DNA of 64,000 nucleotides, taken from the NCBI GenBank assembly GCA_964366415.1, contig CAYITG010000001.1, positions 650,195-714,194 on the forward strand, given 5' to 3'. Positions 1 to 15,725 of this stretch are shown piece by piece. The stretch's first letter is position 1, and each line of letters begins with the position of its first letter. A program made the translations under genes and the position numbers. The stretch is from Candidatus Woesearchaeota archaeon. Its GTDB lineage: Archaea > Nanobdellota > Nanobdellia > SCGC-AAA011-G17 > UBA489. The notes below the pieces were generated by a model, which worked only from the letters and a program-made list of their open reading frames with translations, searched no databases and had not been told where the DNA came from.

Positions 1-1
1 A

Positions 2-1006
2 CAATTCAACATGACTTTGAGTTTACCTGGTGGAATGGATTCCACTTACTATGTCCGATGCACTGATGTCAATGGCAACTCCAATGTGCAAGAATATACA
101 ATTCAATTTGGCACTACTGATGAACCAGACTTAACTCCTCCAGTCATTGAATTAACAAGTATTCCTAGCGGTGCGTATCTTTCTGCTAATTTTACAAGTA
201 CGCCTTTATGGCTGGAACTGAATGAACCTGCTTCTGACTGTTGGTGGAATAAAGGAACTGATGTTGATCGCAATGCTGTTAATATTACCCAAACATTCCT
301 TTGTGGCAATTCCTTAGAACAGCCAGGCGCTTCTTTTAATTTCTCTTCTGGATGGAGCACTTCCTGCGTTGGATTATTGACTGGCATTACTCAAGGAGCT
401 GGTCAGAATAATCAATATTACTTCCGATGCATTGATCTTGCCAACAATTCCATGCAGCAAGGATATTCTTTTGTGTTGAAGGGAAGCACTCCTCTTACTA
501 TTACGCAGACTGCACCAGCAGGCACACTTTATATCAATGATGTCACGTTAAGTGCTAGCACCCTTGGAGGAGCAGAACAAGGTAAAGCACGATGTCGTTA
601 TGCGCAACAATCAGTTTCTGCTTTTATTGACTTTTTTTCCACTGGTGGCAGCCAACATACACAATCTTTTACTGATTTGTTACGCGGGCATTATCAATAT
701 CGCATTCATTGTGAAGATATTGCTGGAAATATTGCCGATGGTCAAACTTCATTTACTGTTGATGTCGATATGATTGCGCCTCATCTTGTGTGGGTGTATA
801 GTGTTGGCACAGCAGTGACTGTTGTATTGAATGAACCTGCTACTTGCCGCTATAGTACTGATACTCTGGCTTTTGTTTTTGCTGATGGAACGCTTGCAGG
901 CACCGATAGCACAACACATATTCTTGCAGAAGATAGTCCTGTTTATTATCTTCAATGTCAAGATCAGTTTGGCAATATGATGGATGAGGTGGCTATTTAT
1001 GCGTAA
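2..1006 (+). CDS. C-terminal part of a large secreted repeat protein (5' end cut by the window edge); paralog of the C-terminal ~330 aa of the 1827..5282 product
   Basis: The frame is open back to position 2 with no upstream stop. It has the same module order as the C-terminus of the 1151-aa protein: DLTPPVIE, then repeated NEP(S/A)xC...Y(Y/F)xRCxDxxGN modules. It carries N-x-S/T sequons. Confidence 0.6.
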   Translation, partial: QFNMTLSLPGGMDSTYYVRCTDVNGNSNVQEYTIQFGTTDEPDLTPPVIELTSIPSGAYLSANFTSTPLWLELNEPASDCWWNKGTDVDRNAVNITQTFLCGNSLEQPGASFNFSSGWSTSCVGLLTGITQGAGQNNQYYFRCIDLANNSMQQGYSFVLKGSTPLTITQTAPAGTLYINDVTLSASTLGGAEQGKARCRYAQQSVSAFIDFFSTGGSQHTQSFTDLLRGHYQYRIHCEDIAGNIADGQTSFTVDVDMIAPHLVWVYSVGTAVTVVLNEPATCRYSTDTLAFVFADGTLAGTDSTTHILAEDSPVYYLQCQDQFGNMMDEVAIYA

Positions 1007-1064
1007 AGCACAATCTTTATATAAATCAGCAGAAGACGAATACTCTCAGAAGAGGCGTATTCCT

Positions 1065-1823
1065 ATGGGAACAAAGAGGCGTGGACAAATCAGTGGTTTT
1101 GCAATCTTAGGGGTTGTTGTTTTAGCACTTGTTGTGCTTCTTTTCTTCTTACGCGACCAATTGGGTATTGTTCTTCCAGGACCTTTAGGTGGCAAACCTG
1201 CGGATATCGGAGAGCATATTCGTCAATGTTTACACGAAACAGCTCCAGAACTCATCGAACGGATGGGCAAACAAGGTGGATTTTTGAGCACTCCTGATGG
1301 AACTTTTAAGTTATATCAAGATATTCCTATTAGTTATCTTTGTTACAATATAGATGGTGAAGAAACGTGTCGCAATCGCATGCTGACTTTAATAGACATG
1401 CAACAAGAATTGGGAGATGCCATTGACAAAGGATTAACGACATGCATTGATTATGGCGCATTCAGAAAGAGAGGATATGATCTTACCATAGGACAACGCA
1501 ACATTGTTGTTGATGTTGGACGTGATGCAACACTTGTGACGGTGAAACAACCATTAAAAATGACGCGAGGAGACACGGTTGTCAATTTTGATGAAGTTGC
1601 AGAATCTTTTTCCTATCCTCTTGGGAGATTGTATGATGTTGGACAAGACGTTGTTGATACGGAAACTACTGCAGGAGAATTTGACCAGTTACCTTACATG
1701 CTTGCCCATCGAGGACAATATCTCATTGAGAAAAAGAGACCTTATCCTGATAAGTTATATATCTTACAAACGAAAGATCATCCTTTTATTTTTCAATTTT
1801 TTGTTCAAGGAGAACCTAGTTAA
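1065..1823 (+). CDS. archaeal type IV pilin-like protein (class III signal peptide)
   Basis: An internal Met start follows a GGAGG-like RBS. The N-terminus reads MGTKRRG|QISGFAILGVVVLALVVLLFF: a basic stretch, Gly, then Gln at +1 and a ~20-aa hydrophobic helix. The mature part has 4 Cys. The upstream Met at 984 would overlap the previous gene. Confidence 0.55.
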   Translation: MGTKRRGQISGFAILGVVVLALVVLLFFLRDQLGIVLPGPLGGKPADIGEHIRQCLHETAPELIERMGKQGGFLSTPDGTFKLYQDIPISYLCYNIDGEETCRNRMLTLIDMQQELGDAIDKGLTTCIDYGAFRKRGYDLTIGQRNIVVDVGRDATLVTVKQPLKMTRGDTVVNFDEVAESFSYPLGRLYDVGQDVVDTETTAGEFDQLPYMLAHRGQYLIEKKRPYPDKLYILQTKDHPFIFQFFVQGEPS

Positions 1824-1826
1824 CTT

Positions 1827-4800
1827 ATGACTTCATGGCGTGCAATACTCTTTGGAATTTTTTTTGTGATTTTGCTAGCTGGACTTCGTGATGTTGATGC
1901 ACAACAAAAAGTATGCTGCAGCGAAACTGTCAGCGGCAGTCATTGTGATTATGTTCCTGCTAATGAATGTCAACCTGGAGCATTGATGGCTGCGACTGCG
2001 TGCGAACAAACAAGTTTTTGCAAATTAGGATGCGGCTATGATCAAGGTTCTGGCAAATGCTTCAAAAATACTCCGAAATTTAACTGTGAACAGCAAGGAA
2101 ACTGCAGTTGGAGCGCGAGTTCGAGTTGTGATATTCCGCAATGTGGGAAGGGATGCTGTGTGTTGAGTAATGAATGCAGTTACATCACACAACTTCAATG
2201 TAAAAAAACTACTAGTTTGTATCCTGATGTTGAGATGACGTTTAAGGAAGAGATTACCAACGAACTTGATTGTGTCAATCAATGTCGCAGCTTTGAACGT
2301 GGAGCATGTGTTAAGCCAGATGGCAGTTGTACGTTTACTACTCGCGAAAGTTGTTCAGAAACTTCTACAACATTAAATGTGAGCGGACCTCTTGTTGGTT
2401 TTCATCCTGATAAATTATGCAGCCATCCACAGTTAGGAACAGAATGCGCATCACAACACACCACAGGATGTTTGCCTGATGGCGATGAAGTGCACTGGTT
2501 TGATAGTTGCGGAAATCCTGAAAATATTTATGATAGCAATAAAGTTCGAAGCTTCAATAATGGTTTTGTTTTGAGCAAAGATCAAAGTTGCAATGCTAAC
2601 AGCAACAATGTCAACAATCCTCAATGTGGTAACTGTAATTATCCTCAAGGAACTCTCTGCGGCGTTGCTGATAGAAGTGTTGATCCTGCTTTTGGGGATT
2701 ATGCTTGCGTTGATGTCAATTGCGGAATTGATGATATTACTCAAGATCCTTACAGCCCAGCTTCTACCTCTTCGAAAAAGTTTGGAGAAAGCTGGTGTGC
2801 TTATGATAGCGTGCCTGGAAGCGGACAAGATCCTGTTGGCAGCAGACAATATCGTCGCGTATGTATTAATGGACAAGAACTTACAGAAGATTGCAAAGAC
2901 TTTCGTGAAGAAATCTGCGTGCAAGGTGTAGCTGGACAACCGCCTCTTCCTACAGGGGCTTCTTTTCAAGTCAGTCAAGGATCATTTTTGAGTGCTGGAT
3001 GCCGTGACAACAGATGGCAGACGTGCGGTGATGCGAAGAATGAATTTGATTGCGTGAATGTGCAACAGCGAGATTGTATGTGGTATGGCGTTAGTTCATA
3101 TGGTAATAAACAACCTGGTAATCCTGATGCAGACACGAAAGCAAAAGCAAATAAAAAAGGGCAATGCGTTCCTTTTGTACCTCCTGGCTTGAAATTCTGG
3201 ACCGATGAAAGTGTTGGACAGACACCAACTGCTGATGCAACAGCAACATGCGCAAAAGCAAATTCAGAATGTACCGTCGTGTATGAGATTAGTGGATGGG
3301 GAGACAAGAAATGTGTCGCTAACTGCGACTGTAAAAAGAAAGAATGGTTGTTAGCACAAAATAGTGTTTGTGTTGCACAAGGAGATTGCGGAGCATGGGT
3401 GAACATTCGTGGCAAAGGAACGACGCATGGTTTTACTGTGAGTCCGAATCATGATTATACTTTGACTGGAAGCGACATTAATTCTTTTGGACAAACTGTT
3501 TTCTTGAAAGAACATGGTAAGGAGTATGACAATAAGTTTGGTGCTTTCTTCAAGAAATCTTGGATACCAACTGCATACTTTGCAACTGTTTATGTTTCTA
3601 CCGTAATTGCTACTGGTTGGGGTACTGCTGCTTCATCTATAGGATTAATCGAAGGAACTTGGTTAAGTGCGCTTGGGGCAAAAAATACTTTATTTTCTGA
3701 ACTTGAAAAAACAGCACTTAAAGAAGGAGGTAAATATGGATTTTCTAATATACGACTATTTGCATACATTAATACTCTTGCATGGATTTGGATGATCTAT
3801 AATCTTATTGATGTTGTCCTTGCTGATACTGAAGAAGATGTTTATAGTGTGCAATGTTTACCCTGGGTAGCACCTGTTGGCGGCGATGACTGTGAGAGTT
3901 GTGGCGATGATGGCAAGGAATGCAGCGAATATCGATGCAAGAGTTTGGGACAAGCGTGTAAACTTTTGAATCCTGGCACTGCAAAAGAAGTTTGCACCAA
4001 TGCGCATCCTAATGATGTTACGTCGCCCATTATTACTGCTGATCCGAGTGCGCTTGAACGTGGATACACCTTGAGTGAGAAAGCCAATGAAGGATATGTT
4101 GTCAATCCACAAGTTGAACCTTTCACTGCTGTCAGTTTAGGTATTAAAACAAATGAACCTTCGCAATGTAAGTTCAGTTTGAATCACTCGATGAGCTATG
4201 ATACCATCACAACGTTCTTTGGCGACAGCTTGTATGATTACAATCATAGCATGACCTTTTCCATCCCTGGAGAGCTTGCAGAGAACCCTGAAATCTTGAA
4301 ACTTACTAACGGCGGGCAATTCACGTTGTATGCCCGATGCCAAGATGGCAATGGCAATAAGAATGAACGTGATTATTACATTAAGTTTGCTGTGAAAAAA
4401 GGTCCAGACTTGACACCGCCCGTGATTGAAGCAACAGGCATTGCGAATGGAGCATATGTTCCTTCAGGCGTGAATTCCACTCCCTTTGTCATGTATGTCA
4501 ATGAACCTTCAGAATGTAAATGGGATGATCTTGATGCAGACTTTGCAAGCATGACGCATGGCTTTACGTGCAAGACACAAGGATTGCCAACATCAAGTTT
4601 ATTCTATGGATTGTATGAATGCGCAACTGTTCTTGACGATTTGGAATCGAACAAAAATAATGCATTTTATTTCAGATGCAAAGATCAACCTGGACAACCA
4701 GAATCAGAGAGAAATGTGAATGAGGAAAGCTATATTTATACTTTGAGAGGAACTGTGCCTTTAGAAATTACAAGCGTTAGTCCAACACAAGGCACGCAAC

Positions 4801-5282
4801 TTATGACGCAAGATCCAGAATTGAAAGTGATTACCTCTCGCGGAGCACAAAACGGTGTTGCTGTATGTGGCTATAGTTTTATTGACAACAGTTTTGGATC
4901 ATCTATTGAATTTGCCATTACGAATAGTACCGTTCATTCACAATTATTCAGCGATCTTAATCCTAGCTCTTACAATGCCTATATCAATTGTGTTGATGCG
5001 GCAGGAAACTTAGCGCAAGCCCAAACAAGTTTCAGCGTTTCGATTGATGCTGGAGGACCTGCTATTGCTCAGGTCTATACTGAAGGAAGTTTGTTGACTG
5101 TTGTGATGAATGAACCATCCACGTGTGAGTATAGCACGACAGGTTTCTTTACGTTCGGAAGCGGCGTGCAAATGACAGGACCCGACACATTTATTCATCA
5201 AGCTCCTTTGGACAGCGACATTTATTATCTTGTTTGTCAGGATAGCTTAAGTAATGAAGGACGCTACACGCTTTATGTGTAA
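1827..5282 (+). CDS. giant (1151 aa) secreted Cys-rich surface or adhesin-like protein with a C-terminal triple repeat module
   Basis: It has an N-terminal signal peptide (MTSWRAILFGIFFVILLAGLRDVDAQQ). Residues ~28-560 are extremely Cys-rich. Two hydrophobic segments sit at ~aa 578-612 and 642-666. The C-terminal ~360 aa are paralogous to ORF 2..1006 (DLTPPVIE; NEPSxC...YxRCxD motifs). An RBS AAGGAGA lies upstream. Confidence 0.6.
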   Translation: MTSWRAILFGIFFVILLAGLRDVDAQQKVCCSETVSGSHCDYVPANECQPGALMAATACEQTSFCKLGCGYDQGSGKCFKNTPKFNCEQQGNCSWSASSSCDIPQCGKGCCVLSNECSYITQLQCKKTTSLYPDVEMTFKEEITNELDCVNQCRSFERGACVKPDGSCTFTTRESCSETSTTLNVSGPLVGFHPDKLCSHPQLGTECASQHTTGCLPDGDEVHWFDSCGNPENIYDSNKVRSFNNGFVLSKDQSCNANSNNVNNPQCGNCNYPQGTLCGVADRSVDPAFGDYACVDVNCGIDDITQDPYSPASTSSKKFGESWCAYDSVPGSGQDPVGSRQYRRVCINGQELTEDCKDFREEICVQGVAGQPPLPTGASFQVSQGSFLSAGCRDNRWQTCGDAKNEFDCVNVQQRDCMWYGVSSYGNKQPGNPDADTKAKANKKGQCVPFVPPGLKFWTDESVGQTPTADATATCAKANSECTVVYEISGWGDKKCVANCDCKKKEWLLAQNSVCVAQGDCGAWVNIRGKGTTHGFTVSPNHDYTLTGSDINSFGQTVFLKEHGKEYDNKFGAFFKKSWIPTAYFATVYVSTVIATGWGTAASSIGLIEGTWLSALGAKNTLFSELEKTALKEGGKYGFSNIRLFAYINTLAWIWMIYNLIDVVLADTEEDVYSVQCLPWVAPVGGDDCESCGDDGKECSEYRCKSLGQACKLLNPGTAKEVCTNAHPNDVTSPIITADPSALERGYTLSEKANEGYVVNPQVEPFTAVSLGIKTNEPSQCKFSLNHSMSYDTITTFFGDSLYDYNHSMTFSIPGELAENPEILKLTNGGQFTLYARCQDGNGNKNERDYYIKFAVKKGPDLTPPVIEATGIANGAYVPSGVNSTPFVMYVNEPSECKWDDLDADFASMTHGFTCKTQGLPTSSLFYGLYECATVLDDLESNKNNAFYFRCKDQPGQPESERNVNEESYIYTLRGTVPLEITSVSPTQGTQLMTQDPELKVITSRGAQNGVAVCGYSFIDNSFGSSIEFAITNSTVHSQLFSDLNPSSYNAYINCVDAAGNLAQAQTSFSVSIDAGGPAIAQVYTEGSLLTVVMNEPSTCEYSTTGFFTFGSGVQMTGPDTFIHQAPLDSDIYYLVCQDSLSNEGRYTLYV

Positions 5283-5291
5283 GAGGCCGTC

Positions 5292-5789
5292 ATGATTCGT
5301 CTTCATAAAAAGGGAGTTGAGATGCAGGTTTTTACTTTTATTTTTGCCCTCATCTTAATTGTTTTCATCTTAGCTTATGGATTGCGAAGCATTTCCCGCA
5401 TACAAGGCGTGGGTGAAAATGTTGACCTGGGAGATTTTGTCTTTCGCTTGCGAGATCAGGTTGACATGATGGTTTCTTTTGAAATTGACAGCACGAAACA
5501 AGTGAAATTATTTTTACCTAACAAAGTGACACAAGTGTGCTTCTTCAATGGGGAGCACGAGATTACTTTGCATGATGATGACTTAGACCTTTATTTTGAG
5601 ACTAATTTAGGAAAAAATGTTTTTGTTGCACCTTTTTCATTTGCTCAGAATATTTTTTTGATTGAACATTTGCGACCTGACCATGCAGGAGATAACCCTC
5701 TTTGTTTTGCAACCAAAGGCGTTCTTCAGTTTACCTTGACCACTGTTTTAGGAGACGATGATAACATTTATGTAGAAGTCAGTCGTTGA
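5292..5789 (+). CDS. small pilin-like or signal-anchored secreted protein
   Basis: The N-terminus MIRLHKKG|VEMQVFTFIFALILIVFILAY has a basic stretch, Gly and a hydrophobic helix. It sits in the tight operon with other class III signal peptide proteins. Confidence 0.4.
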   Translation: MIRLHKKGVEMQVFTFIFALILIVFILAYGLRSISRIQGVGENVDLGDFVFRLRDQVDMMVSFEIDSTKQVKLFLPNKVTQVCFFNGEHEITLHDDDLDLYFETNLGKNVFVAPFSFAQNIFLIEHLRPDHAGDNPLCFATKGVLQFTLTTVLGDDDNIYVEVSR

Positions 5790-5796
5790 TGTCCTT

Positions 5797-6765
5797 ATGT
5801 TTTTTAAAAAAAAAGGGTTGAGCGGAGATCTTTTTACGTGGATTCTTGCTACCATCGCTGGCGTTTTTATCTTAGTCTTTTTTTATCGGTTTGCTACCCA
5901 ACATATTGATGTCAGCGAAGACTTGACCGATAGACAGACAGCCGAATACTTGATCGATGAACTTGATGCTTTCAGCACTGGAGAAAGTTCTACGAATTAT
6001 CTCAACTTTCGTACGCCCTTAGATGTGACGTTTCAGTGCGGTAGCGTTGGCTTCCGTGATTTTGCGAAAGATTTGGATAGACTTGTCTTTGCACCTTCAG
6101 AGATACATGATGATGAGATTGCGATGTGGACAGAAGTGTGGAAATTTCCTTTTCCCATTACTCCTGTATATTATCTTACTACAAAACGATCTCGCACCAT
6201 TATTATTTATGATGATCGCAGCGTTGATTTCATCCAGCGTCATTCTTTTCCTAGTACGATGGGCATTCAGAGCGTTCATATTAAGTCTCTTAAGCTTGAT
6301 CAACTTCGCCAACAGACCTCTGGACTTGACAGTCTTCATTTGATTTATCTTATTCCTGTACGCGATGTGAACATTATATCAGAAGCATTTCCTTCTTTGA
6401 AACCAGACATTCTTGAAGTAGATTTAGAGAAACATACGGTTCGCTATCACAACTATCGCATTGATGGCTTTTATTTAGGCGATGAGATGTTATATGGCGC
6501 ATTCTTTGCACCTGAACAATTTCCCTGCCTTCAACGCAAGGCTTTAGAACATCTTTGGCGAGCAGCTCACCTTCTGGAGCAACGCGCGCGATTATTACAA
6601 GGAAAAATAGCAGATCCTGCTTGCAGTGAGCTATTTTTCTCTTTGAGCACTGCTTATCATGGCTTCATTGGCGTTGATGATTATGATCTTCTCTATGAAC
6701 AGATGGAACGTGTTGATCAATATGATTCTTTACTTCAGCGACAGGGTTGTGGAGGAGCGTATTAA
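5797..6765 (+). CDS. pilin-like protein (class III signal peptide-like N-terminus)
   Basis: The N-terminus is MFFKKKG|LSGDLFTWILATIAGVFILVFF. It is tightly spaced in the operon. Confidence 0.45.
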   Translation: MFFKKKGLSGDLFTWILATIAGVFILVFFYRFATQHIDVSEDLTDRQTAEYLIDELDAFSTGESSTNYLNFRTPLDVTFQCGSVGFRDFAKDLDRLVFAPSEIHDDEIAMWTEVWKFPFPITPVYYLTTKRSRTIIIYDDRSVDFIQRHSFPSTMGIQSVHIKSLKLDQLRQQTSGLDSLHLIYLIPVRDVNIISEAFPSLKPDILEVDLEKHTVRYHNYRIDGFYLGDEMLYGAFFAPEQFPCLQRKALEHLWRAAHLLEQRARLLQGKIADPACSELFFSLSTAYHGFIGVDDYDLLYEQMERVDQYDSLLQRQGCGGAY

Positions 6766-7283
6766 TGAACAAACAAGGTCAGTTAGGAATGCAGGAAATC
6801 CTGTTGGTTACTTTCATCCTTGTTATTCTTTTCGTTCTTGGCTTAGTCCTTTATTTCAAATTTTCTTTGGCTCATGTTCAGACTATTGGAGAAACATTGA
6901 GTGAGCAAGAAACAACTATTCTTCTCTCTCGGATTCATTCTTTACCTGAATTACGCTGTCGAGATCGGGTTTGTTTAGACACGAGCAGGTTTATCCCTTT
7001 TCAAACTCTCACGCAGCGTCATCAGGAGTATTATGCAAATTTTTTAGGTTATAAGAAAATCGTTGTGACTCAACTGTATCCTGCGCCTGAAACACGTGAG
7101 CTATGCACTTTAACAACGTATGAACAAGATGCTTATCCTCAAAACTGCTTTTCTTGGACACTTTATGATCACAAACCTCAAAAGGTTCGCCAACAGATCA
7201 TTGTCCGGACCTTTGTTTCTTTATATTATCCTGAATTGGAAGAATATCGTCTTGGGGAGATTGAGGTGATTACGTATGCCTAA
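6765..7283 (+). CDS. pilin-like protein (class III signal peptide, Gln +1)
   Basis: The start was moved to the internal ATG that overlaps the upstream stop (TAATG). The N-terminus is MNKQG|QLGMQEILLVTFILVILFVLGLVLYF. Confidence 0.5.
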   Translation: MNKQGQLGMQEILLVTFILVILFVLGLVLYFKFSLAHVQTIGETLSEQETTILLSRIHSLPELRCRDRVCLDTSRFIPFQTLTQRHQEYYANFLGYKKIVVTQLYPAPETRELCTLTTYEQDAYPQNCFSWTLYDHKPQKVRQQIIVRTFVSLYYPELEEYRLGEIEVITYA

Positions 7284-7707
7284 GAAAGGGCAAGCAGAAG
7301 CTATGGGCATTTTGATTTTGCTTATTATTATACTCCTCTTGGCATTCCTGTACTTACGTTTCAGCTTGCGTGGCGACAACAAAGACTATGCCAGCGTGCG
7401 GGAAAGCATTGCCGCCCATGACCTTTTACGCGCATTACTTCAATTACATATTCGAGAAGAATCCTTCCAGGAACTCACTGTAGGTTGTTATTATGACTCT
7501 GCTTCTTGTGATCTTCTACGGCAACGTGTCAAGAGTATATTTACCAATATCTTTACTGGGCCAGAGACTTATCATCTTCTCTTGAAAGCAGAGGACCAGA
7601 CTCTCGTGGATGAAGGAACATGTTCCCAAGGCATTGTTGGACGGATCCCTTATACTGTTGATGGGGTTCTTTATGAGGGTATTTTGACGCTTTGCGGCCG
7701 TTCTTAG
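7276..7707 (+). CDS. pilin-like protein (class III signal peptide, Gln +1)
   Basis: An RBS GGAGGTGATT precedes the ATG. The N-terminus is MPKKG|QAEAMGILILLIIILLLAFLYL. Confidence 0.5.
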   Translation: MPKKGQAEAMGILILLIIILLLAFLYLRFSLRGDNKDYASVRESIAAHDLLRALLQLHIREESFQELTVGCYYDSASCDLLRQRVKSIFTNIFTGPETYHLLLKAEDQTLVDEGTCSQGIVGRIPYTVDGVLYEGILTLCGRS

Positions 7708-7830
7708 CTTCTTTTTTATGTTTCACTTTTAGAGTGGTGACATAACTTTATCAGCTTATTTTTCTTAAGTTGCTTCATTATGGCTAAAAACCTCGAATTT
7801 CGACAGAATACTATGAATATTACTTGTCTG

Positions 7831-7852
7831 GCATATAAATGCTTATAAATGA
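7831..7852 (+). promoter_or_regulatory. putative archaeal TATA/BRE promoter of the surface protein gene
   Basis: Two tandem ATATAAAT / TTATAAAT elements lie in the 250-bp intergenic region upstream of 7958. A strong SD sequence (GGAGGTG) sits 7 nt before the ATG. Confidence 0.3.
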
Positions 7853-7957
7853 GGTGGAGCCCCCTATCCATGCTTAGTATGATATGTAGAAAGAAAAGTC
7901 TCAGTCATACCGGGCTAAACGGAGAAAAAAAATCATACTCATACGGAGGTGTGATAC

Positions 7958-10639
7958 ATGCAAAGATTACGAAGAGCAGTTAAAAAAATAGCTGCTATTA
8001 GTGCAGGAGTTGCCATGCTTGGCGCTACTATGACGAGCGCAGTTGCATTGGATCTTGCAGATTACCCAGCACCATTCGTCACGGATGGTACATATAACAC
8101 GGACACAGCCGTTGTTGTGGGAAGAGATGCAGCAGCATCCGATACTATCGGAATTGCTAATGTTATCAAAGGCTTGCAATTTGAGAGCAAAGTCTGTACG
8201 CCAGGACAGTCTGTCGGTGGCGGAGTCAGTATTTCTGGAGATGCAGTTGAAATCTCAGACGCAAGTGACTTGCTTGAATTGCGAGAAAACATTGGAAGCG
8301 TACGCGAAACCATTACAGAAGTTGAATTAGATGGTTTAGCAGGTGGTTTGGTTACCACAAATGAAGGAACAACTGAGTTTAACCAATATTTGCGTTTTAG
8401 AAACACAGTTACTGGCGTCAACACTTTGACGAATTCCCCTTCTATAAACTTTACCGAGAATGATGCTCCTACTTCTGAAGTAGGCGACTACTTGGTCATT
8501 CGAGAAGGCTCAGCAGCAAACACTAGTTTCTTTGAATATGAATTGGAATTCGAAGATGGTTTGGAATCTGACATTGCTTCCAGTAAATTGGAAGATTTGG
8601 AAGATGAAGAACTTATCATCTTGGGAACTACATACACCTTTGTCGACACACGTGTTGACACTAGTGCAAATTCAGTCGAACTTGACATGTTAGGTGGAGC
8701 TGAATATGCAGTTTTGGAAGAAGGTGAAGTACGAACATTTACCATTGATGGTAAAGAGTACGAAGTTGAAGTTTTAATTATTGAGGACACCAATCCTCCT
8801 ACCGCAACTTTCAAGATCAACGGCGAGATCACAGATCAGCTTGTTGATGGTGAAACTGAAATCCTTAAGGATGGAACCTTAATTGGTATTTCTGACATCA
8901 TCTTGAATGAAGCTGGTGAAGCTGGATCTGGCGACTTAGTTGAACTCTTTGTTGGAGCTACAAAACTTCAATTAAAAGACACTAACTACAGTAATTCTGA
9001 AGTAGGAGCCGGCGGACCAACATTAGGTTACTTCCAAGGTGTTGAAATTGATGAAGAACCTATTGAAGATGCCTTTGTGCAAATTCAAGCTAATCTCATC
9101 TCAGCTACAGAGCTTGAGTTGTTGAGCATCAAGTACAGACTTTCCGCAGACGCCTTACCCGGTCAACGAGACATTTTTGTTGCAGCTGGCCACGGAGTTC
9201 GTGAATACCTAGACGAACCTCAGGGTATGCTAGGCTTTGATTGGGACATCCGTTACGAAGGGTTAGACGATGTTGGAGTATCCATCATCAAATTAGATCC
9301 TAGTGGCGATGATGAATACCAGATCGAAGTTGAAAATAAACAAGGAAAGGTTTACAAGTGGCCTTTAATTACCAATGAAGGTGGAACTTTCAAATATGGA
9401 GACAACAATGATGACTTCGTATGGATTGAAGGTTTTATCAATACCACTGCTGCGGCAAACAACTTAACTGGAAGCAAAGACGATGGAACTCCAGATATCT
9501 TTAACGTCGGTCGATTGGACTATTTTATCTTAAGTGACATGGACCGAGCGTTTGATGATACTGCTGTATCTCATATTTTGAGGTATAATTCTATCGATGT
9601 TGCATCTGCACAGTTGCAGTTTGATGACCTTGCAACTGGAAGCAAAGACTTCATCTATGAAGCTGCAGGAAAGCTTGACGCTCTTGGACGAGCTGACATC
9701 GTGATTGGTGGAAGTACTTATACACTTTACATCGCTAACGTGACAGCTGGATTAGCAGGAGACGCACCTTTAGCTATTGATGCGGATGGAGATGGCGTTT
9801 TTACTGAACGTCAAGTCATACGTTTCACCACTAACGGTGGAGGTATTTTGACTTTTGGTCGAAATGGTGCGGTAAGTGATGGAGCTAATGTCTCTGCGAC
9901 AGGTGCAGCTACACAGGCATCATCCATTGCTGCAGGAAATAGTATTGCTGGTAACACAGCTGCTACTTTTATGAACCTTACCACTCTTAGCGAAAATTTC
10001 GATGAGAATGGACCATCTGCAACTGGAGACCCACCAACAAATATCAATGAGGACTTGCAATTTGCAGTTCAGCAAAGAGCTAATAATAGAATTGGAATTA
10101 GCACTGCGGCCTCAAACTGGTCTTCATTAGGCGGTTTTGCCTTAGTCCAACCAGACGAAGACGATGACCACTACTATGGTATGACTGACTATGGTGCACT
10201 CGTTACATTGTTTGATCCTGAAGGAACAGATGATGCTGAAACAGTCACCATTGAGTATCCACTCATTCAACGTGGTGCTCGTGCATTCATTACCATGGGC
10301 GAGACTACTGCAACTAAGACTACTGCAGGCGAAGTTTGTACTGTTGCATCGATTGATGTGAATACATTATTCGATGATGAAGTTACAGACCCAACCATGT
10401 ATGATATGATCCTCGTTGGAGGACCATGTATCAACGATGCAGTTGAGAAAGTCCCAGGTTTAACAACTTGTGATGAATTCAGATCACAGTATGCACCTGG
10501 AGATGCAATTGTCCAATTGGTTGAGAATGGCGATCATGTTGCCATGCTTGTCTCTGGTTACAATGCAGAAGACACCTTAGCAGCTGCAAAAGCAGTTGAG
10601 AAGGGAACTGGCATCAGTGGTACCTTAGCCACCATCTAA
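7958..10639 (+). CDS. putative S-layer or major surface glycoprotein (893 aa, acidic)
   Basis: It has a signal peptide (MQRLRRAVKKIAAISAGVAMLGATMTSAVA). It is rich in Asp/Glu/Thr/Gly and carries many N-x-S/T sequons. It is a monocistronic unit with its own promoter region and a hairpin plus T-tract downstream. AglB lies 7 kb away. Confidence 0.55.
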   Translation: MQRLRRAVKKIAAISAGVAMLGATMTSAVALDLADYPAPFVTDGTYNTDTAVVVGRDAAASDTIGIANVIKGLQFESKVCTPGQSVGGGVSISGDAVEISDASDLLELRENIGSVRETITEVELDGLAGGLVTTNEGTTEFNQYLRFRNTVTGVNTLTNSPSINFTENDAPTSEVGDYLVIREGSAANTSFFEYELEFEDGLESDIASSKLEDLEDEELIILGTTYTFVDTRVDTSANSVELDMLGGAEYAVLEEGEVRTFTIDGKEYEVEVLIIEDTNPPTATFKINGEITDQLVDGETEILKDGTLIGISDIILNEAGEAGSGDLVELFVGATKLQLKDTNYSNSEVGAGGPTLGYFQGVEIDEEPIEDAFVQIQANLISATELELLSIKYRLSADALPGQRDIFVAAGHGVREYLDEPQGMLGFDWDIRYEGLDDVGVSIIKLDPSGDDEYQIEVENKQGKVYKWPLITNEGGTFKYGDNNDDFVWIEGFINTTAAANNLTGSKDDGTPDIFNVGRLDYFILSDMDRAFDDTAVSHILRYNSIDVASAQLQFDDLATGSKDFIYEAAGKLDALGRADIVIGGSTYTLYIANVTAGLAGDAPLAIDADGDGVFTERQVIRFTTNGGGILTFGRNGAVSDGANVSATGAATQASSIAAGNSIAGNTAATFMNLTTLSENFDENGPSATGDPPTNINEDLQFAVQQRANNRIGISTAASNWSSLGGFALVQPDEDDDHYYGMTDYGALVTLFDPEGTDDAETVTIEYPLIQRGARAFITMGETTATKTTAGEVCTVASIDVNTLFDDEVTDPTMYDMILVGGPCINDAVEKVPGLTTCDEFRSQYAPGDAIVQLVENGDHVAMLVSGYNAEDTLAAAKAVEKGTGISGTLATI

Positions 10640-10640
10640 A

Positions 10641-10676
10641 AGAGAGATTAACTCTCTTTCTTTTTTCTTTTTCATT
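10641..10676 (+). terminator. hairpin plus oligo-T terminator after the surface protein gene
   Basis: AGAGAG-attaa-CTCTCT inverted repeat followed by TTCTTTTTTCTTTTTC. Confidence 0.45.
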
Positions 10677-10741
10677 TTTATGACCCTAGTGAATACTTTG
10701 TGGAAAACTTTATATAGTCGCATTCAAGGTGATGTGTTAAC

Positions 10742-11167
10742 ATGATTGTTGGATTTAATCTTACAAAAATTTTAGTTGAGCGTAAGAAACCCGTGCAAGG
10801 AAAGATCAAAGTCAATCACGATTTGCGCATTGACAATGTTGAACAACGACCCTTACCTCTTAAAGACAAAAAGAATGCTCTTATCTTTGAGTTTGTTTTT
10901 AATATTAACTATGAACCTGGCGTAGGCGAAGTCGCTTTACAAGGAAATGTTTTGTATTATGATGATCAGAAGAAGCTTGATGCTATTGCTCAGCAATGGA
11001 AAAAGACCAAAAAAGTTGCTCCAGAAGTTTCTGTTGAAGTCATTAATGTTATCTTTGCTCGCTGTAATATCCGTGCTTTGGAACTTAGTCAAGAACTTAA
11101 CTTACCTGCACATCTTCCTTTACCTCAGATTAATCTGAAAGAAGATCCTAGTAAATACATTGGTTAA
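10742..11167 (+). CDS. hypothetical cytoplasmic protein
   Basis: ORF with an RBS (AAGGTGATG) and no recognisable motifs. Confidence 0.45.
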   Translation: MIVGFNLTKILVERKKPVQGKIKVNHDLRIDNVEQRPLPLKDKKNALIFEFVFNINYEPGVGEVALQGNVLYYDDQKKLDAIAQQWKKTKKVAPEVSVEVINVIFARCNIRALELSQELNLPAHLPLPQINLKEDPSKYIG

Positions 11168-11766
11168 TGTTTTCTATGAAAACTCGAGCTTCTCCAGGAG
11201 AGCAACGTGAGACCAAGAAGCTCTTTCTACCACTTTTTATTGCTACCATTCTTATCATGAGTACGTTTGGTATTATTCTTGGTGGATTTTCCTCTGAAGA
11301 ATCAACAACCACTCAAGGAGAGAATATTGGTGGCGCTTACTTCAGCCTTTCTAATGGCCGATGGATTGTTCAGGGCAGCGGATATACTTTGAATTTGCAG
11401 TATGGTCCTGAAGCTCTTCGCGCTGTTGAACCTATTGATGTTAACTCTTTACGTCAAGTCTCTAAAGTTTATATTAGTTACAAAAGCGGAGAGAATACTT
11501 TAAATGCGATTCCTGACTTTTATCAAAATATGAAACAATTTGTTAAAGTGACTCCAGCTTGCGTGGAAGATGGATCTGGATGCGAAGAACTTCCCTTAAA
11601 GACTTGCGCAGATGCAGATTCTTCTGTTGGCGTTGTTATGATCACTCTTTCTTCTGAACAACATATTACTCAAGAAGGAACATGTATCCACATTCAAGGT
11701 GATGCAGAATATATTACTGCTGTTGTTGACAGAATTCTTTTGACTTATGTTGGAGTTACTTTATGA
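11167..11766 (+). CDS. membrane-anchored hypothetical protein
   Basis: It has an N-terminal signal anchor. Its C-terminal motif DRILLTYVGV is shared with the next ORF, so the two are paralogs. Confidence 0.45.
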   Translation: MFSMKTRASPGEQRETKKLFLPLFIATILIMSTFGIILGGFSSEESTTTQGENIGGAYFSLSNGRWIVQGSGYTLNLQYGPEALRAVEPIDVNSLRQVSKVYISYKSGENTLNAIPDFYQNMKQFVKVTPACVEDGSGCEELPLKTCADADSSVGVVMITLSSEQHITQEGTCIHIQGDAEYITAVVDRILLTYVGVTL

Positions 11767-12368
11767 AACCTCATGAAAAACAGCTCATGATTATTTTTGT
11801 CATTCTTGGGATTTTATTTCTTGGTCTGATTGGTGGCATTATGTATTATAAAAAAGAATATCAAAAAAGTTATTTTACCTATCGTGGTTTTGACTTCAAA
11901 CAAGTTGCTGGAGGATATCAGATTACAGTCTATATCAATGAACAACAGATTCCACGCACACTTACTTTACGGTCAGACCCTCGTGACATCGAAGATATTC
12001 CTGTCGAGACAGACGTACGTTCCTTAATAAAAAAGAAAGAGATCTTCGTAACGATTAATCCTTATGATAATCTTACCGGGCTCACCACCATGGCAGTGTT
12101 AGAACTTGATAAAGTTTTAGATAATCCTAATTTGTATAACATTCCTTTGAATGCTTCTTTTACAGAACTTTATCCAAAAGGAGGATTAAGCGTGAAGACA
12201 TGTGTTGATGCTACTCCCGATATCGCTGTCTTATGGTTTAAACTTGAAGAACGCACGCGCATTTATGAGAATGAGGGATGTATTATTATTGCTGGAGAAC
12301 AAGAGGAAGATCTTGTTGAGGTCGCGGATAGAATTATTTATACACTCTTGGGCATTATGGATTCCTGA
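11763..12368 (+). CDS. membrane-anchored hypothetical protein (paralog of 11167..11766)
   Basis: It has an N-terminal TM helix, a 4-nt overlap with the upstream gene, and a conserved C-terminal motif ADRIIYTLLGI. Confidence 0.45.
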   Translation: MKPHEKQLMIIFVILGILFLGLIGGIMYYKKEYQKSYFTYRGFDFKQVAGGYQITVYINEQQIPRTLTLRSDPRDIEDIPVETDVRSLIKKKEIFVTINPYDNLTGLTTMAVLELDKVLDNPNLYNIPLNASFTELYPKGGLSVKTCVDATPDIAVLWFKLEERTRIYENEGCIIIAGEQEEDLVEVADRIIYTLLGIMDS

Positions 12369-13662: not shown

Positions 13663-14022
13663 ATGGTTGTATCCCCAGATAAAACTATTGTCGGTCTTGT
13701 TGAAGAAGTTGAAATTAACAATCAGATTTTTCTCGCACGTATTGATACAGGAGCAGCTACAAGTTCTATTGATTTAGGATTGGCATCTGAATTGCAACTA
13801 GGGCCTTTAATTGCCAAGCGCACTGTACGCTCTGCTCAAGGAAAAGCTATTCGGCCTGTCGTCAAAGTGTCTGTGCGCATTAAAAACCGCAGAATGCGCG
13901 CTTCTTTTACTGTCATTCATCGGGCGCATATGGATTATCCCATCCTTATCGGGAGAAATCTTTTGAAAAAAAACTTTCTTATTGATCCAGCATTACCGTT
14001 ACCTACACGGAAAATCTCATGA
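13663..14022 (+). CDS. retropepsin-like aspartic protease (COG4067-type, RimK-associated)
   Basis: It carries the D-T-G-A active-site motif (ARIDTGAATSS). It is 119 aa and overlaps the downstream ATP-grasp gene by 4 nt. Confidence 0.65.
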   Translation: MVVSPDKTIVGLVEEVEINNQIFLARIDTGAATSSIDLGLASELQLGPLIAKRTVRSAQGKAIRPVVKVSVRIKNRRMRASFTVIHRAHMDYPILIGRNLLKKNFLIDPALPLPTRKIS

Positions 14023-15092
14023 AACTCTGTGTCATCAGCCTTGGCGGAAAAAGTAGTTTGCATATTGCGAAAGAAGCTGAACATTACTTTGATCATGTTG
14101 ATGCTGTTGATCTTCGCACGTTAGAAGTTCATGCTTCCTCAGAAGGACTGGATGTTTTTTCTGGAAAAAAACAACTTAAGGATTATGATTGTATTTACAT
14201 TCGTGGATCGTTCAAATATACTCTTCTTCAACGCGCCATTAGCCGAGCATTTTACAATGAGGCGTATTTACCCATTAAACCTTTAGCATTTTCTATTGCT
14301 CATGATAAATTTCTTACCTTGCTTGAACTTTTGAAGAATGGAGTGAATACTCCGAAGACATATTTTGCTGCAACCACTCCTGCTGCTAAAAAAATCCTTG
14401 AAGACGTTCAATACCCTATCGTGATGAAGATTCCTTTTGGCACCCAGGGAAAAGGCGTCATGATGGCAGATTCTTTGATGGGCGCAAAAACGATGTTGGA
14501 TGCTTTAGAAACTTTCAAACAACCTTACATTATTCAGGAGTTCATTGATGCGGACTTTACAGACATTCGTGCTGTTGTCATTGGCAATAAAGTCATTGCT
14601 ATGAAAAGACGGGCTGCTTCAGAAGAAATGCGCGCCAATATTCATGCTGGCGGGAAGGGAGAACTTGTTGAGATTAGTCCTGATATTGAACAAATTGCCT
14701 TAAAATCTGCGAAAGTATTAGGGGCAGACATTTGCGCCGTTGATATTATGGAGGGTAGAAAACCTTCCGTTATTGAAGTGAATCTTTCTCCAGGCCTTGC
14801 AGGCATTACCAAAGCCACTAAAAAAAACGTTGCGCAATCTATTGCCAAATACCTTGCAGAACAAACTCAGGATTATCTCAAGAAAAAGAAAGCAGCTCAA
14901 CAGGGAAAGATCATGAATGCACTTCCACGCCGCAATACTAAAATCCTTTCTACTCTTGATGTTCGCAATGGCATGATCCGTTTGCCTAAATTTGTTACTG
15001 ATCTCAGCGAGTTCACTATGAATGATGAAATCACCCTTATTGTGGACAAAGGAAAAGTCGAAATTCGAGACACTAAGATCAAGAAAGAATAG
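14019..15092 (+). CDS. RimK-like ATP-grasp alpha-L-glutamate ligase family protein
   Basis: ATP-grasp motifs are present (KIPFGTQGKGVMMAD; IIQEFID...DIRAVVIGNKVIAMKRRA). It is paired with a retropepsin-like protein as in RimK loci. Confidence 0.7.
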   Translation: MKLCVISLGGKSSLHIAKEAEHYFDHVDAVDLRTLEVHASSEGLDVFSGKKQLKDYDCIYIRGSFKYTLLQRAISRAFYNEAYLPIKPLAFSIAHDKFLTLLELLKNGVNTPKTYFAATTPAAKKILEDVQYPIVMKIPFGTQGKGVMMADSLMGAKTMLDALETFKQPYIIQEFIDADFTDIRAVVIGNKVIAMKRRAASEEMRANIHAGGKGELVEISPDIEQIALKSAKVLGADICAVDIMEGRKPSVIEVNLSPGLAGITKATKKNVAQSIAKYLAEQTQDYLKKKKAAQQGKIMNALPRRNTKILSTLDVRNGMIRLPKFVTDLSEFTMNDEITLIVDKGKVEIRDTKIKKE

Positions 15093-15173
15093 ATTTGTAG
15101 TGAACAACGAGATAATTTTAATTTTATATATCCTCGTAACAATATTTATAAATTCGCGCTTCATTTTTCTTTT

Positions 15174-15725
15174 ATGGACATTGAAGAAGCATTGCAAAAG
15201 AAAGGACTTGTTAACATCCAGTCCATTAATAACCATATCCGTTTGGACCTACGTTATGCTACTGCGAATAATATAACAAAAAAGAAATTGTATTCCAGAC
15301 CACTCTGTTTTTTCAGAGAAGAAGTTGCTGAAAACCTTTCATTCGTTCAGCAAGAATTAGAGAACAAAGGATTAACTTTAATTATTTGGGATGGCTACCG
15401 GCCACTTCGCATACAAACATCCATCTGGAACGCATTTCCTCATCCTACTTACAATACAAAAATTTCTTCTCACAATAAAGGAATTGCTGTAGATCTTACT
15501 TTAGGAGATAAGGATGGCAATCCTCTTCCTATGCCAACAGCATTCGATGTTTTTGGAGAACAAAGCCATCATGGATTTGGTAAACTTCCAGAAACTGTCA
15601 TAGCAAATAGAGAGACGCTAAAGGATGTTATGGAACGACATGGTTTTGAACGTTTTGAATTTGAGTGGTGGCATTATACCTACACTAAATTAAAGGATGT
15701 AGAGGTATTAGACATTCCGATTTAA
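15174..15725 (+). CDS. D-Ala-D-Ala dipeptidase (VanX/DdpX, M15D peptidase)
   Basis: It has an SxHxxGxAxD motif (SSHNKGIAVDL) and a C-terminal EWWH (FEFEWWHYTY). The length is 183 aa. Confidence 0.65.
   Translation: MDIEEALQKKGLVNIQSINNHIRLDLRYATANNITKKKLYSRPLCFFREEVAENLSFVQQELENKGLTLIIWDGYRPLRIQTSIWNAFPHPTYNTKISSHNKGIAVDLTLGDKDGNPLPMPTAFDVFGEQSHHGFGKLPETVIANRETLKDVMERHGFERFEFEWWHYTYTKLKDVEVLDIPI

Follow-up and report, generated by a model that had tools for sequence, protein, structure and literature searches.

Closest described systems

Archaeal type IV pilus loci commonly unite minor pilins, two large adhesin-like proteins and a protein resembling those of the surface layer (S-layer) (PMC4858521). 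In this study, a locus with several of these traits was analysed in a 64,000-nt stretch of DNA (the window; contig CAYITG010000001.1, positions 650,195 to 714,194 of the forward strand) from a Candidatus Woesearchaeota archaeon. Positions 1-7707 of the window carry seven plus-strand genes in the order giant1 (3′ end)-pil1-giant2-pil2-pil3-pil4-pil5 (Table 1). pil1 to pil5 encode small proteins with prepilin-type N-termini, and giant1 and giant2 encode Cys-rich secreted proteins of over 1,000 residues. The data given below suggest, with a probability of about 0.5, that these products form an undescribed pilin-anchored cell-surface attachment complex, a variation on the theme of type IV pilin plus adhesin.

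The Epd locus of Methanococcus maripaludis (type IV filament [TFF] 'system 1'; EpdA-E) resembles the present operon in several respects. As in the pil proteins, a short basic leader precedes Gly -1 and Gln +1 in its pilins; in M. maripaludis this Gln +1 is essential for processing by the pilin-specific peptidase EppA (PMC4390842). Several different minor pilins are likewise encoded in one transcription unit, and two large secreted proteins occur at the locus (PMC4858521). System 1 has been reported in DPANN archaea with two platform genes (bioRxiv 10.64898/2026.04.22.720090), as also found in locus L085 described below. The operon studied here differs in having no ATPase, platform or dedicated peptidase gene, in showing no sequence or hidden Markov model (HMM) similarity to the Epd pilins or to Class_IIIsignal (PF04021, formerly DUF361), and in having giants in which no domain of the DUF2341 proteins is detectable. 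Its conserved Glu is at +3 or +6 and does not follow the QxSxExxxL pattern.

Resemblance was also seen to two bacterial gene sets, the minor-pilin/PilY1 operon of type IVa pili (fimU-pilVWXY1E) and GspG-K of the type II secretion system (T2SS). Both comprise four to five non-homologous pilin-like genes in a fixed order, genetically apart from the ATPase and platform genes, and the former is co-transcribed with a displayed non-pilin protein of >1000 residues. Structural matches of pil1, all of them weak, were to GspI/EpsI, XcpV, PilX and PilE. However, the bacterial sets belong to another domain of life and show no sequence homology to the present genes. Unlike PilY1, the giants are not beta-propeller/vWA proteins (no beta-propeller or DUF2341 by Pfam, and no propeller among the structural matches); they carry a hairpin, or are split, or are fused to a pilin-like module. 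There are also two giants here, each preceded or separated by pil1.

In Streptococcus sanguinis, the modular pilins PilB and PilC place a class III signal and a pilin module before an adhesive module (PMC8179133), as do 52 fusion proteins described below. The window, by contrast, has the two parts as separate genes, the appended part (~800-1000 residues) is far larger than in the known modular pilins, and the pil1 module is unrecognisable as a pilin by HMM. The substrates of the Sulfolobus bindosome (Bas) and ArlF/ArlG likewise use class III-type N-termini to mount non-filament proteins or to bind the S-layer, and BasE is among the matches of the L085 ATPase. In contrast to the bindosome, neither sugar-binding domains nor an ABC transporter was found here; unlike ArlF, pil1 is an alpha/beta protein rather than a beta-sandwich, and no archaellum genes are nearby.

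Prepilin-type N-termini of pil1 to pil5

Across about 100 loci, all five families were found to have the class III N-terminal signature, consisting of a short basic leader (~4-7 residues), Gly, Ala or Ser at -1, usually Gln at +1, and a hydrophobic helix of ~20 residues. The motif scored was [KR]x?[GAS]Q immediately before the first hydrophobic helix. It was present in 80 of 84 pil1, 22 of 23 pil5, 26 of 36 pil4 and 22 of 35 pil2 homologues; the pattern without the Q ([KR]x?[GAS]) occurred in all 35 pil2 homologues. pil3 was the least Q-conserved family (6/35 with Q, 31/35 for the pattern without it). As controls, the giants (0/134) and o199/o201, two anchored proteins encoded downstream (0/29), lacked the motif. 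Among other N-terminally anchored open reading frames (ORFs) of the same loci, 23 of 448 had it, 21 of which proved to be unrecognised pil genes lying within clusters, leaving ~2 of 427.

Each family also has its own conserved sequence around this site (a slash marks the predicted cleavage position). The pil1 consensus is M-x-[KR]-[KR]-[G/A/S]-Q-[VIAL]-[TS]-hydrophobic, and cleavage of the window copy is predicted after Gly7 (nt 1083-1085). The window copy of pil2 has Val at +1; its orthologues read K[KR]G/Q[IL][LVM]G[QM]P. In pil3, [KR][KR]G is followed by 4-6 polar residues. In pil4 (KKGQ....E), Gln +1 and Glu +6 (Q6 and E11) are at least 90% conserved, and pil5 ([KR][GA]Q.E..GL) has an invariant Gln +1 and Gly +6 and a nearly invariant Glu +3. 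Four invariant Cys were found in pil5 and likewise in the globular part of pil4. A FlaFind-like regular expression was matched by window pil1, pil3 and pil5, and by orthologues of pil2 and pil4.

An earlier note on this DNA, made from the letters and a list of ORFs, had quoted five N-termini (KRRG/QISGF, KKG/VEMQ, KKKG/LSGD, KQG/QLGMQE and KKG/QAEAM) as class III-like. These are exact, and the prepilin-type N-terminus with Gln +1 is conserved over deep divergence.

The globular parts of the five proteins showed no mutual homology (hhalign, all <3%), and the proteins are not recent paralogues. Because the globular parts are unrelated, so that the motif would not be inherited from one ancestral gene, the shared motif appears, from the sequences, to be best explained by a common constraint on processing or assembly. 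A Glu within the helix at +3 (pil5) or +6 (pil4) is unusual for a plain membrane anchor and recalls Glu5 of bacterial pilins. For archaeal prepilin peptidases a leader of 3-5 residues can suffice, in keeping with the 4-7 residues observed.

Pairing and fusion of pil1 with the giants

In the predicted model of pil1 (predicted local distance difference test [pLDDT] score 91.5), the N-terminal helix (residues 11-32) is followed by a disordered Pro/Gly-rich linker (33-45) and an alpha/beta domain with a second helix packed on beta-sheets. A giant gene was found within 150 nt after pil1 in 66 of 82 cases, and in 5 more of the 82 the gene that follows encodes a secreted non-giant protein of at least 500 residues.

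An exhaustive profile search with pil1 retrieved 8,234 clusters (at 50% identity) at E <= 1e-3, of which 5,231 were at E <= 1e-10. Of the best 147 newly retrieved representatives, 52 were pil1-giant fusions of 670-1350 residues. In these proteins, labelled Nanoarchaeota or Woesearchaeota at NCBI, the first ~250 residues correspond to pil1, including MKKGQ…, and the remainder aligns to residues ~316-1071 of giant2; the N-terminal pil1 helix is the sole hydrophobic segment in nearly all of them. A metagenome scan seeded with fusions gave a sample of 78 loci, and among these and the look-up loci L084-L089 a total of 53 were of the fusion type. Fusion-type genes also stand alone, far from any S-layer gene.

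Since pil1 and the giant form a single polypeptide in many relatives, Rosetta-stone logic suggests that the two act as one unit. The association of pilin-like proteins with giants is thus much stronger than could be foreseen in the earlier note. The fused form shows a modular-pilin architecture with a very large appended module; this architecture is found in the fusion relatives and not in the window, where pil1 and the giants are separate ORFs.

The pil1 module with a KKGQ leader also heads other proteins of 500-780 residues (L109 8062-9630 and 13573-15096; L110 13636-15966 and 21639-23732; L136 6710-8821). No Pfam match was found for other large proteins fused or adjacent to pil1. pil1 therefore seems to be a carrier of general use for differing surface domains. 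Two further large proteins adjoin pil1-giant fusions: a 1645-residue secreted protein (L084 14104-19041) with C1q and faint H_lectin matches lies directly 3′ of the fusion in L084, and a 1940-residue unannotated protein lies directly 5′ of that in L086.

The giant proteins

giant1 runs off the 5′ edge of the window, as the earlier note had supposed of a second giant, and its complete sequence was obtained from L001, a longer public contig with an identical giant2 that adds 8 kb of upstream DNA. The two giants are 32% identical over their full length. giant1 has a Sec-type N-terminal signal or anchor, a Cys-rich ectodomain, a strongly hydrophobic helical hairpin (residues 550-597), and a C-terminal part with a Cys knot and an immunoglobulin (Ig)-like array. 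A Flp1_like (PF16982) match in giant1 was dismissed as spurious, being below the cut-off and covering only the transmembrane (TM) helix at 575-599.

giant2 contains 64 Cys, 47 of them within the first 560 residues, bearing out the Cys-rich N-terminal domain, and its two central hydrophobic segments are also real (Table 1). Its AlphaFold2 model (pLDDT 84) has a beta-rich ectodomain of ~530 residues, with four to five C-x(4-9)-C-x-aromatic-x(3-8)-C hairpin motifs, and a disordered loop between the two helices. Dozens of Cys are invariant in the alignment of the giants. For the C-terminus a triple repeat had been proposed. Repeated domains were indeed present in the model and in fold searches, but as four to five Ig-like sandwiches with no sequence repeats detectable by BLAST. 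The fold searches with giant2 returned Ig/Fn3 matches only, the C-terminus resembling tandem-Ig adhesion molecules, and the N-domain gave no match; the tandem beta-sandwiches are those of an Ig-like adhesin array (Big_13-like). No Pfam or PDB relative of the giants was found. The 252 homologues of giant2 (~1100-1500 residues) are all hypothetical proteins from metagenome-assembled genomes of Candidatus Woesearchaeota, Nanoarchaeota or Nanoarchaeia. These results support the view that the giants are secreted, Cys-rich, adhesin-like proteins with Ig arrays.

The Pacearchaeota version of the giant is divided into two halves precisely at the hairpin: the N-terminal half has no TM segment at its end, and the C-terminal half opens with a Sec-type signal peptide (…VSA/Q) and a Pro/Thr/Gly linker. 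As both halves are secreted without a membrane anchor, a partner must hold them at the cell surface.

These variants bear on another possibility, that of a core host-attachment or envelope-spanning organelle built non-canonically from pilin-like subunits, which we regard as quite unlikely. Such an organelle would either use no dedicated type IV ATPase or platform, or have the giant hairpin co-assemble with the helices of the pilins. In such a device the giants would count as integral stalk subunits rather than passengers, and the hairpin, the split and the pil1 fusion would be alternative ways to dock a protein of ~1000 residues into a bundle of helices. With >8,000 clusters, the pil1 module would serve generally, and so far unrecognised, as an anchor for large DPANN surface proteins.

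Conservation of the operon

One genome per GTDB species was scanned with an alignment of the giants, which gave 78 loci from Woesearchaeota and Pacearchaeota, and the window proteins were then compared by BLAST with the ORFs of these loci. Matches were found for pil1 in 66, pil2 in 35, pil3 in 37, pil4 in 37 and pil5 in 24 loci, and for the S-layer gene and PCNA in 31 and 36 loci, respectively. pil5 was recognised in ~10 further loci missed by BLAST, and pil5 homologues overlooked in this way are present in most loci. The recurring order was signal peptidase I-TFS-PCNA-(variable genes)-giant1-pil1-giant2-pil2 to pil5-S-layer-o141-o199-o201. The window-type order was also seen in ~24 metagenome loci, making about 100 loci of Woesearchaeota and Pacearchaeota overall. 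In Pacearchaeota the pil1-giant modules are repeated, and genes like pil2 to pil5 are also present. Because the gene order and flanks are the same across loci, the operon is a core, vertically inherited trait of Woesearchaeales and Pacearchaeales and not an island. pil5, the sole pil family searched in the full protein database, had 96 homologues of 102-169 residues, with nearly all of them between 137 and 169; none is annotated as more than hypothetical, and those that are named are without exception of the Woesearchaeota type.

An integrated virus or mobile element encoding structural or entry proteins was considered as well, since the GC content is slightly raised (0.40-0.41), giant Cys-rich proteins without known relatives are encoded, and cassettes of winged helix-turn-helix (wHTH) and HEPN-like genes are inserted in the operon in some genomes. 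Against this, the operon occupies the same position, from PCNA/TFS/signal peptidase I to the S-layer gene, in dozens of species of two orders, and the cassettes vary in position by genome and lie outside the conserved set. No PHROG match was found for the seven proteins, no phage match for pil1 by tblastn, and no integrase, repeats or tRNA. Such an origin is effectively refuted by the synteny.

The two-gene wHTH/HEPN-like cassettes, which are toxin-antitoxin-like, were found at differing points within the operon (L010 13978-16734; L016 17993-18930; L029 6098-8035; L053 4741-5675; L056 789-1717; L057 1688-2616; L079 8805-9828). That the inserted genes might be the missing assembly machinery was rejected on account of this identity. 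L056 (JAUYPF010000021.1) carries the full archaeal operon yet was deposited as 'MAG: bacterium'; its label or binning is probably wrong.

Proposed attachment complex and search for assembly machinery

We propose that pil1 to pil5 are made as prepilin-type precursors and would be cleaved between the small -1 residue and the usual Gln +1 by an unlinked class III signal peptidase (EppA/PibD/FlaK-type, A24). Their N-terminal helices may then bundle into a short heteromeric stalk resembling a type IV filament, or into a tip or priming complex, by means of an ATPase and platform presumably encoded elsewhere. Such a complex would resemble the minor pilin sets of bacterial type IV pili and T2SS and the Epd minor pilins of Methanococcus. 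pil1 may serve as the adaptor carrying the two giants, which, with a Cys-rich head and four to five Ig-like domains, would act as adhesins extending across the S-layer or past it, with a host cell or a surface as the presumed target. The tip-adhesin pilus suggested in the earlier note is only one reading among several; the giants of the window have Sec signals of their own and a hydrophobic hairpin.

Several results weigh against this proposal. The window proteins matched no pilin, archaellin or class III model in Pfam (E up to 0.1); ten proteins gave no pilin or archaellin match in NCBIfam (E up to 10), and 76 pil1 members gave no pilin or class III match in Pfam (E up to 10). The curated models concerned are Pilin_N and Class_IIIsignal of Pfam and the archaeal flagellin N-terminal domain of NCBIfam. 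PDB searches with profiles of pil1, pil4, pil5 and the giant gave nothing significant; pil4 matched a Geobacter pilin domain in the N-helix only, at a non-significant E value of 1. Window pil2 (Val +1, Glu +2) and pil4 (Gln -2) miss the FlaFind-like pattern. Evidence on fold among the five families comes from the pil1 model, in which the fold is only weakly pilin-like; as predicted, pil1 fits a tethered domain better than a continuous pilin alpha-1 helix. The window giants, with their own Sec signal peptides and central hydrophobic hairpin, therefore need no pilin anchor.

The remaining adverse evidence concerns the assembly genes. Peptidase_A24, T2SSE and T2SSF were not found by Pfam annotation from -8 to +73 kb (8 kb upstream, the window and 10 kb downstream). 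When the ATPase and the two platform proteins of L085 were used as phmmer queries, no homologue was detected within 10 kb of the 78 orthologous genome loci or in the ~24 window-type metagenome loci. Linkage to a T2SSE ATPase and a T2SSF/TadC/ArlJ platform, as in TFF systems, was thus not observed for the operon, and a filament ATPase was found near the fusion genes in only 2 of 53 loci (L085 and L104), which by rough estimate is about chance level for one to three such loci per ~1-Mb genome. A groundwater study has in addition reported that type IV pilus components are missing in DPANN genomes (He et al., bioRxiv 10.1101/2020.05.14.094862).

The earlier note had expected assembly genes just upstream, where PCNA, TFS, RpoL and signal peptidase I were found instead. 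It had also named a lack of HMM support and of pilus assembly genes within ~20 kb as grounds for giving up its interpretation, and formally both are lacking. We do not take the lack of assembly genes nearby as a refutation, since in archaea the genes of pilins and those of their machinery are often unlinked (PMC4858521). FlaI, FlaJ and FlaK have been annotated in Woesearchaeota genomes (PMC8407392), and Woesearchaeota archaellins are highly expressed (PMC11606122). As the N-terminal signature is present but HMM recognition and linkage to assembly genes are not, pil1 to pil5 are termed prepilin-like and are not filed as pilins. The earlier interpretation as a whole is partly supported.

The same absences bring up an S-layer-associated envelope scaffold. 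Here pil1 to pil5 would be uncleaved type II membrane anchors working with no type IV machinery; together with the giants they would form pseudoperiplasmic pillars or anchors that hold or organise the S-layer, and the G-Q motif would be a lineage-specific feature of the helix start. ArlF and ArlG are S-layer-binding proteins with pilin-like N-termini and count in favour of this idea. So do the position of the operon, locked beside an S-layer gene and a very large glycosylation island, the S-layer protein without a C-terminal TM segment, the tether-like linker after the pil1 helix, the unmatched pilin HMMs, the lack of assembly genes near about 100 loci and the report of He et al. However, a scaffold leaves unexplained why a small residue and Gln occur at the same place in five unrelated families and not in other anchored proteins, and why Glu is conserved within the membrane. 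Gln +1 N-termini are also found on the pilin-like ORFs of a true filament operon (L085), and fusion-type genes occur far from S-layer genes. We consider the scaffold rather unlikely.

In L085, the fusion gene (P0393) lies back-to-back with a complete type IV filament operon (L085 1-9904, minus strand). This operon encodes a FlaI/TadA/BasE-like ATPase, two T2SSF platform proteins, a wHTH protein and the products of five small ORFs; all five have class III-like leaders, and Gln +1 is present in three (KRG/QVNT, KRS/QSSLEY and KKN/QVLLEF). On the other side of the filament operon a 6948-residue Laminin_G_3 and subtilase protein is encoded. In L104, the fusion gene is 6 kb from an ATPase gene and the gene of a large polytopic protein. 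These loci show that organisms with the pil1-giant family can possess the machinery and related Gln +1 pilins, and nothing more; adjacency of the fusion genes to type IV pilus genes was dropped as a decisive link, given its occurrence in 2 of 53 fusion-type loci.

The L085 ATPase, resembling FlaI, TadA and the bindosome ATPase BasE and standing beside a fusion gene, is also among the points that would suit a pseudopilus-type secretion or assembly device, similar to type II secretion or the Sulfolobus bindosome. pil1 to pil5 would in that case make up a short piston or platform that exports or positions the giants and possibly the S-layer protein. Five different single-copy pilin-like genes in fixed order, like GspG-K, a pil5 family of only 96 proteins in the full protein database, and the nearby S-layer gene agree with such a device. 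It is nevertheless quite unlikely in our judgement: the giants and the S-layer protein carry ordinary Sec signal peptides, no secretin-like or dedicated ATPase/platform genes occur in or near the operon, and, judging from the pil1-giant fusions, the pilin module carries the giant and does not release it as cargo.

Novelty and significance

No description of the operon or its families was found in the literature searches made, and all seven families are unannotated, without Pfam, NCBIfam or PDB relatives, in agreement with the earlier view of the system as undescribed. Pilin-like proteins with large adhesins are a known theme, of which this unannotated variant looks new. Woesearchaeota and Pacearchaeota, which are very small and probably symbiotic, rank with the most abundant archaea not yet cultured from groundwater, lakes and sediments, and are thought to live attached to other cells. 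The operon is syntenic across both orders, adjoins the S-layer gene in the centre of the cell-envelope gene region and is made up of unannotated families, all of which makes it a concrete candidate for the main device by which these archaea interact with surfaces. A testable rule follows from the pil1-giant fusions, namely that a pilin-type module carries a giant adhesin. pil1 itself defines a large dark-matter family that is missed by current pilin predictors and HMM libraries, so that pilin-like substrates may be undercounted in censuses that find DPANN archaea to lack type IV pilus components. Whether assembly machinery is present in these genomes decides between a variant of an ordinary pilus and a new use of pilin-like proteins.

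Operon structure and genomic surroundings

The source organism is a groundwater Woesearchaeote, consistent with the DPANN assignment in the earlier note, and the contig names point to 0.1-µm filtered Hainich groundwater. All seven ORFs, which that note had described as packed on the plus strand with short spacers or overlaps, were confirmed by ORF inspection, with spacers of 58 nt at most, down to overlaps of 1 and 8 nt (Table 1). For pil1, the gene caller had chosen an alternative ATG at 999, which overlaps giant1.

Table 1. Features of the operon and its 3′ neighbours (window positions unless L001 is given; a slash marks the predicted cleavage position)
Feature	Position	Strand	Size	Remarks
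giant1, C-terminus	2..1006	+	334 aa in window	
giant1, full protein	L001 5929-9180		1083 aa	From the longer contig
pil1	1065..1823	+	252 aa	MGTKRRG/QISGFAILGVVVLALVVLLFFL
giant2	1827..5282	+	1151 aa	
giant2, Sec signal peptide	1827-1901	+	aa 1-25	
giant2, Cys-rich ectodomain	1905-3506	+	aa 27-560	47 Cys
giant2, two amphipathic/hydrophobic helices	3561-3818	+	aa 579-605, 642-664	
giant2, Cys knot and four to five Ig-like domains	3825-5279	+	aa 667-1151	
pil2	5292..5789	+	165 aa	MIRLHKKG/VEMQVFTFIFALILIVFIL
pil3	5797..6765	+	322 aa	MFFKKKG/LSGDLFTWILATIAGVFILVFF; largest of the pil proteins
pil4	6765..7283	+	172 aa	MNKQG/QLGMQEILLVTFILVILFVLGL
pil5	7276..7707	+	143 aa	MPKKG/QAEAMGILILLIIILLLAFLYL; smallest, size most major-pilin-like
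Intergenic region closing the operon	7708..7957	+		Read by eye
S-layer protein	7958..10639	+	893 aa	PF05124; TIGR01564 above cut-off
o141, o199, o201	10742..12368	+		Conserved trio 3′ of the S-layer gene; neighbours only

Three sets of signals were read by eye: a TATA-like sequence (TTTATATA) ~35 nt 5′ of giant1 (L001 5883-5890), an oligo-T run directly 3′ of the pil5 stop codon, and a TATA-like box and GGAGGT Shine-Dalgarno sequence of the S-layer gene's own in the intergenic region. Because of these signals, the transcription unit probably extends from giant1 through pil5.

Upstream of giant1, L001 encodes PCNA, TFS, an archaeal signal peptidase I (TIGR02228), RpoL, a PMT_2 protein and a radical S-adenosylmethionine (SAM) enzyme. 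A DUF1554-like secreted protein encoded immediately 5′ of giant1 was rejected as a member of the system, as it was seen in just one other locus.

The S-layer protein has a signal peptide and no C-terminal membrane anchor. In at least 31 loci its gene accompanies the operon in synteny, and it is regarded as a conserved neighbour of the system. The o141-o199-o201 trio likewise keeps its place beside the operon in many genomes; no family was assigned to it by Pfam or NCBIfam. o199 and o201 are paralogues (hhalign 99.7%), each with an N-terminal TM helix and without the G/Q motif. The trio could encode S-layer anchoring factors.

Beyond the trio are genes for an AI-2E transporter, RimK, a D-Ala-D-Ala dipeptidase, diphthamide synthase and AglB/STT3, followed by the glycosylation island. 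At window 13663-15725, genes for a retropepsin-like aspartyl protease (RimB-like), a RimK ATP-grasp ligase and a Peptidase_M15 (VanX-like) D-Ala-D-Ala dipeptidase adjoin; the last, peptidoglycan-related and odd in an archaeon, may relate to a bacterial host or food source. The glycosylation island is unusually large, covering window 17354-64000 and 10 kb beyond (L080-L082). Encoded in it are AglB/STT3, >12 glycosyltransferases, two Wzx-like flippases, three PMT_2 proteins, five B12-binding radical-SAM enzymes, a carbamoyltransferase and sugar-nucleotide enzymes. No tRNA or Rfam elements were found in the window. The GC content of the operon is slightly above that of most of the window, with values of 0.39-0.43 at 1-12000 (operon and S-layer region) versus 0.35-0.38 for most of 12000-54000 in the glycosylation island, and it climbs again at 54-60 kb. 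The higher values may reflect highly expressed genes.

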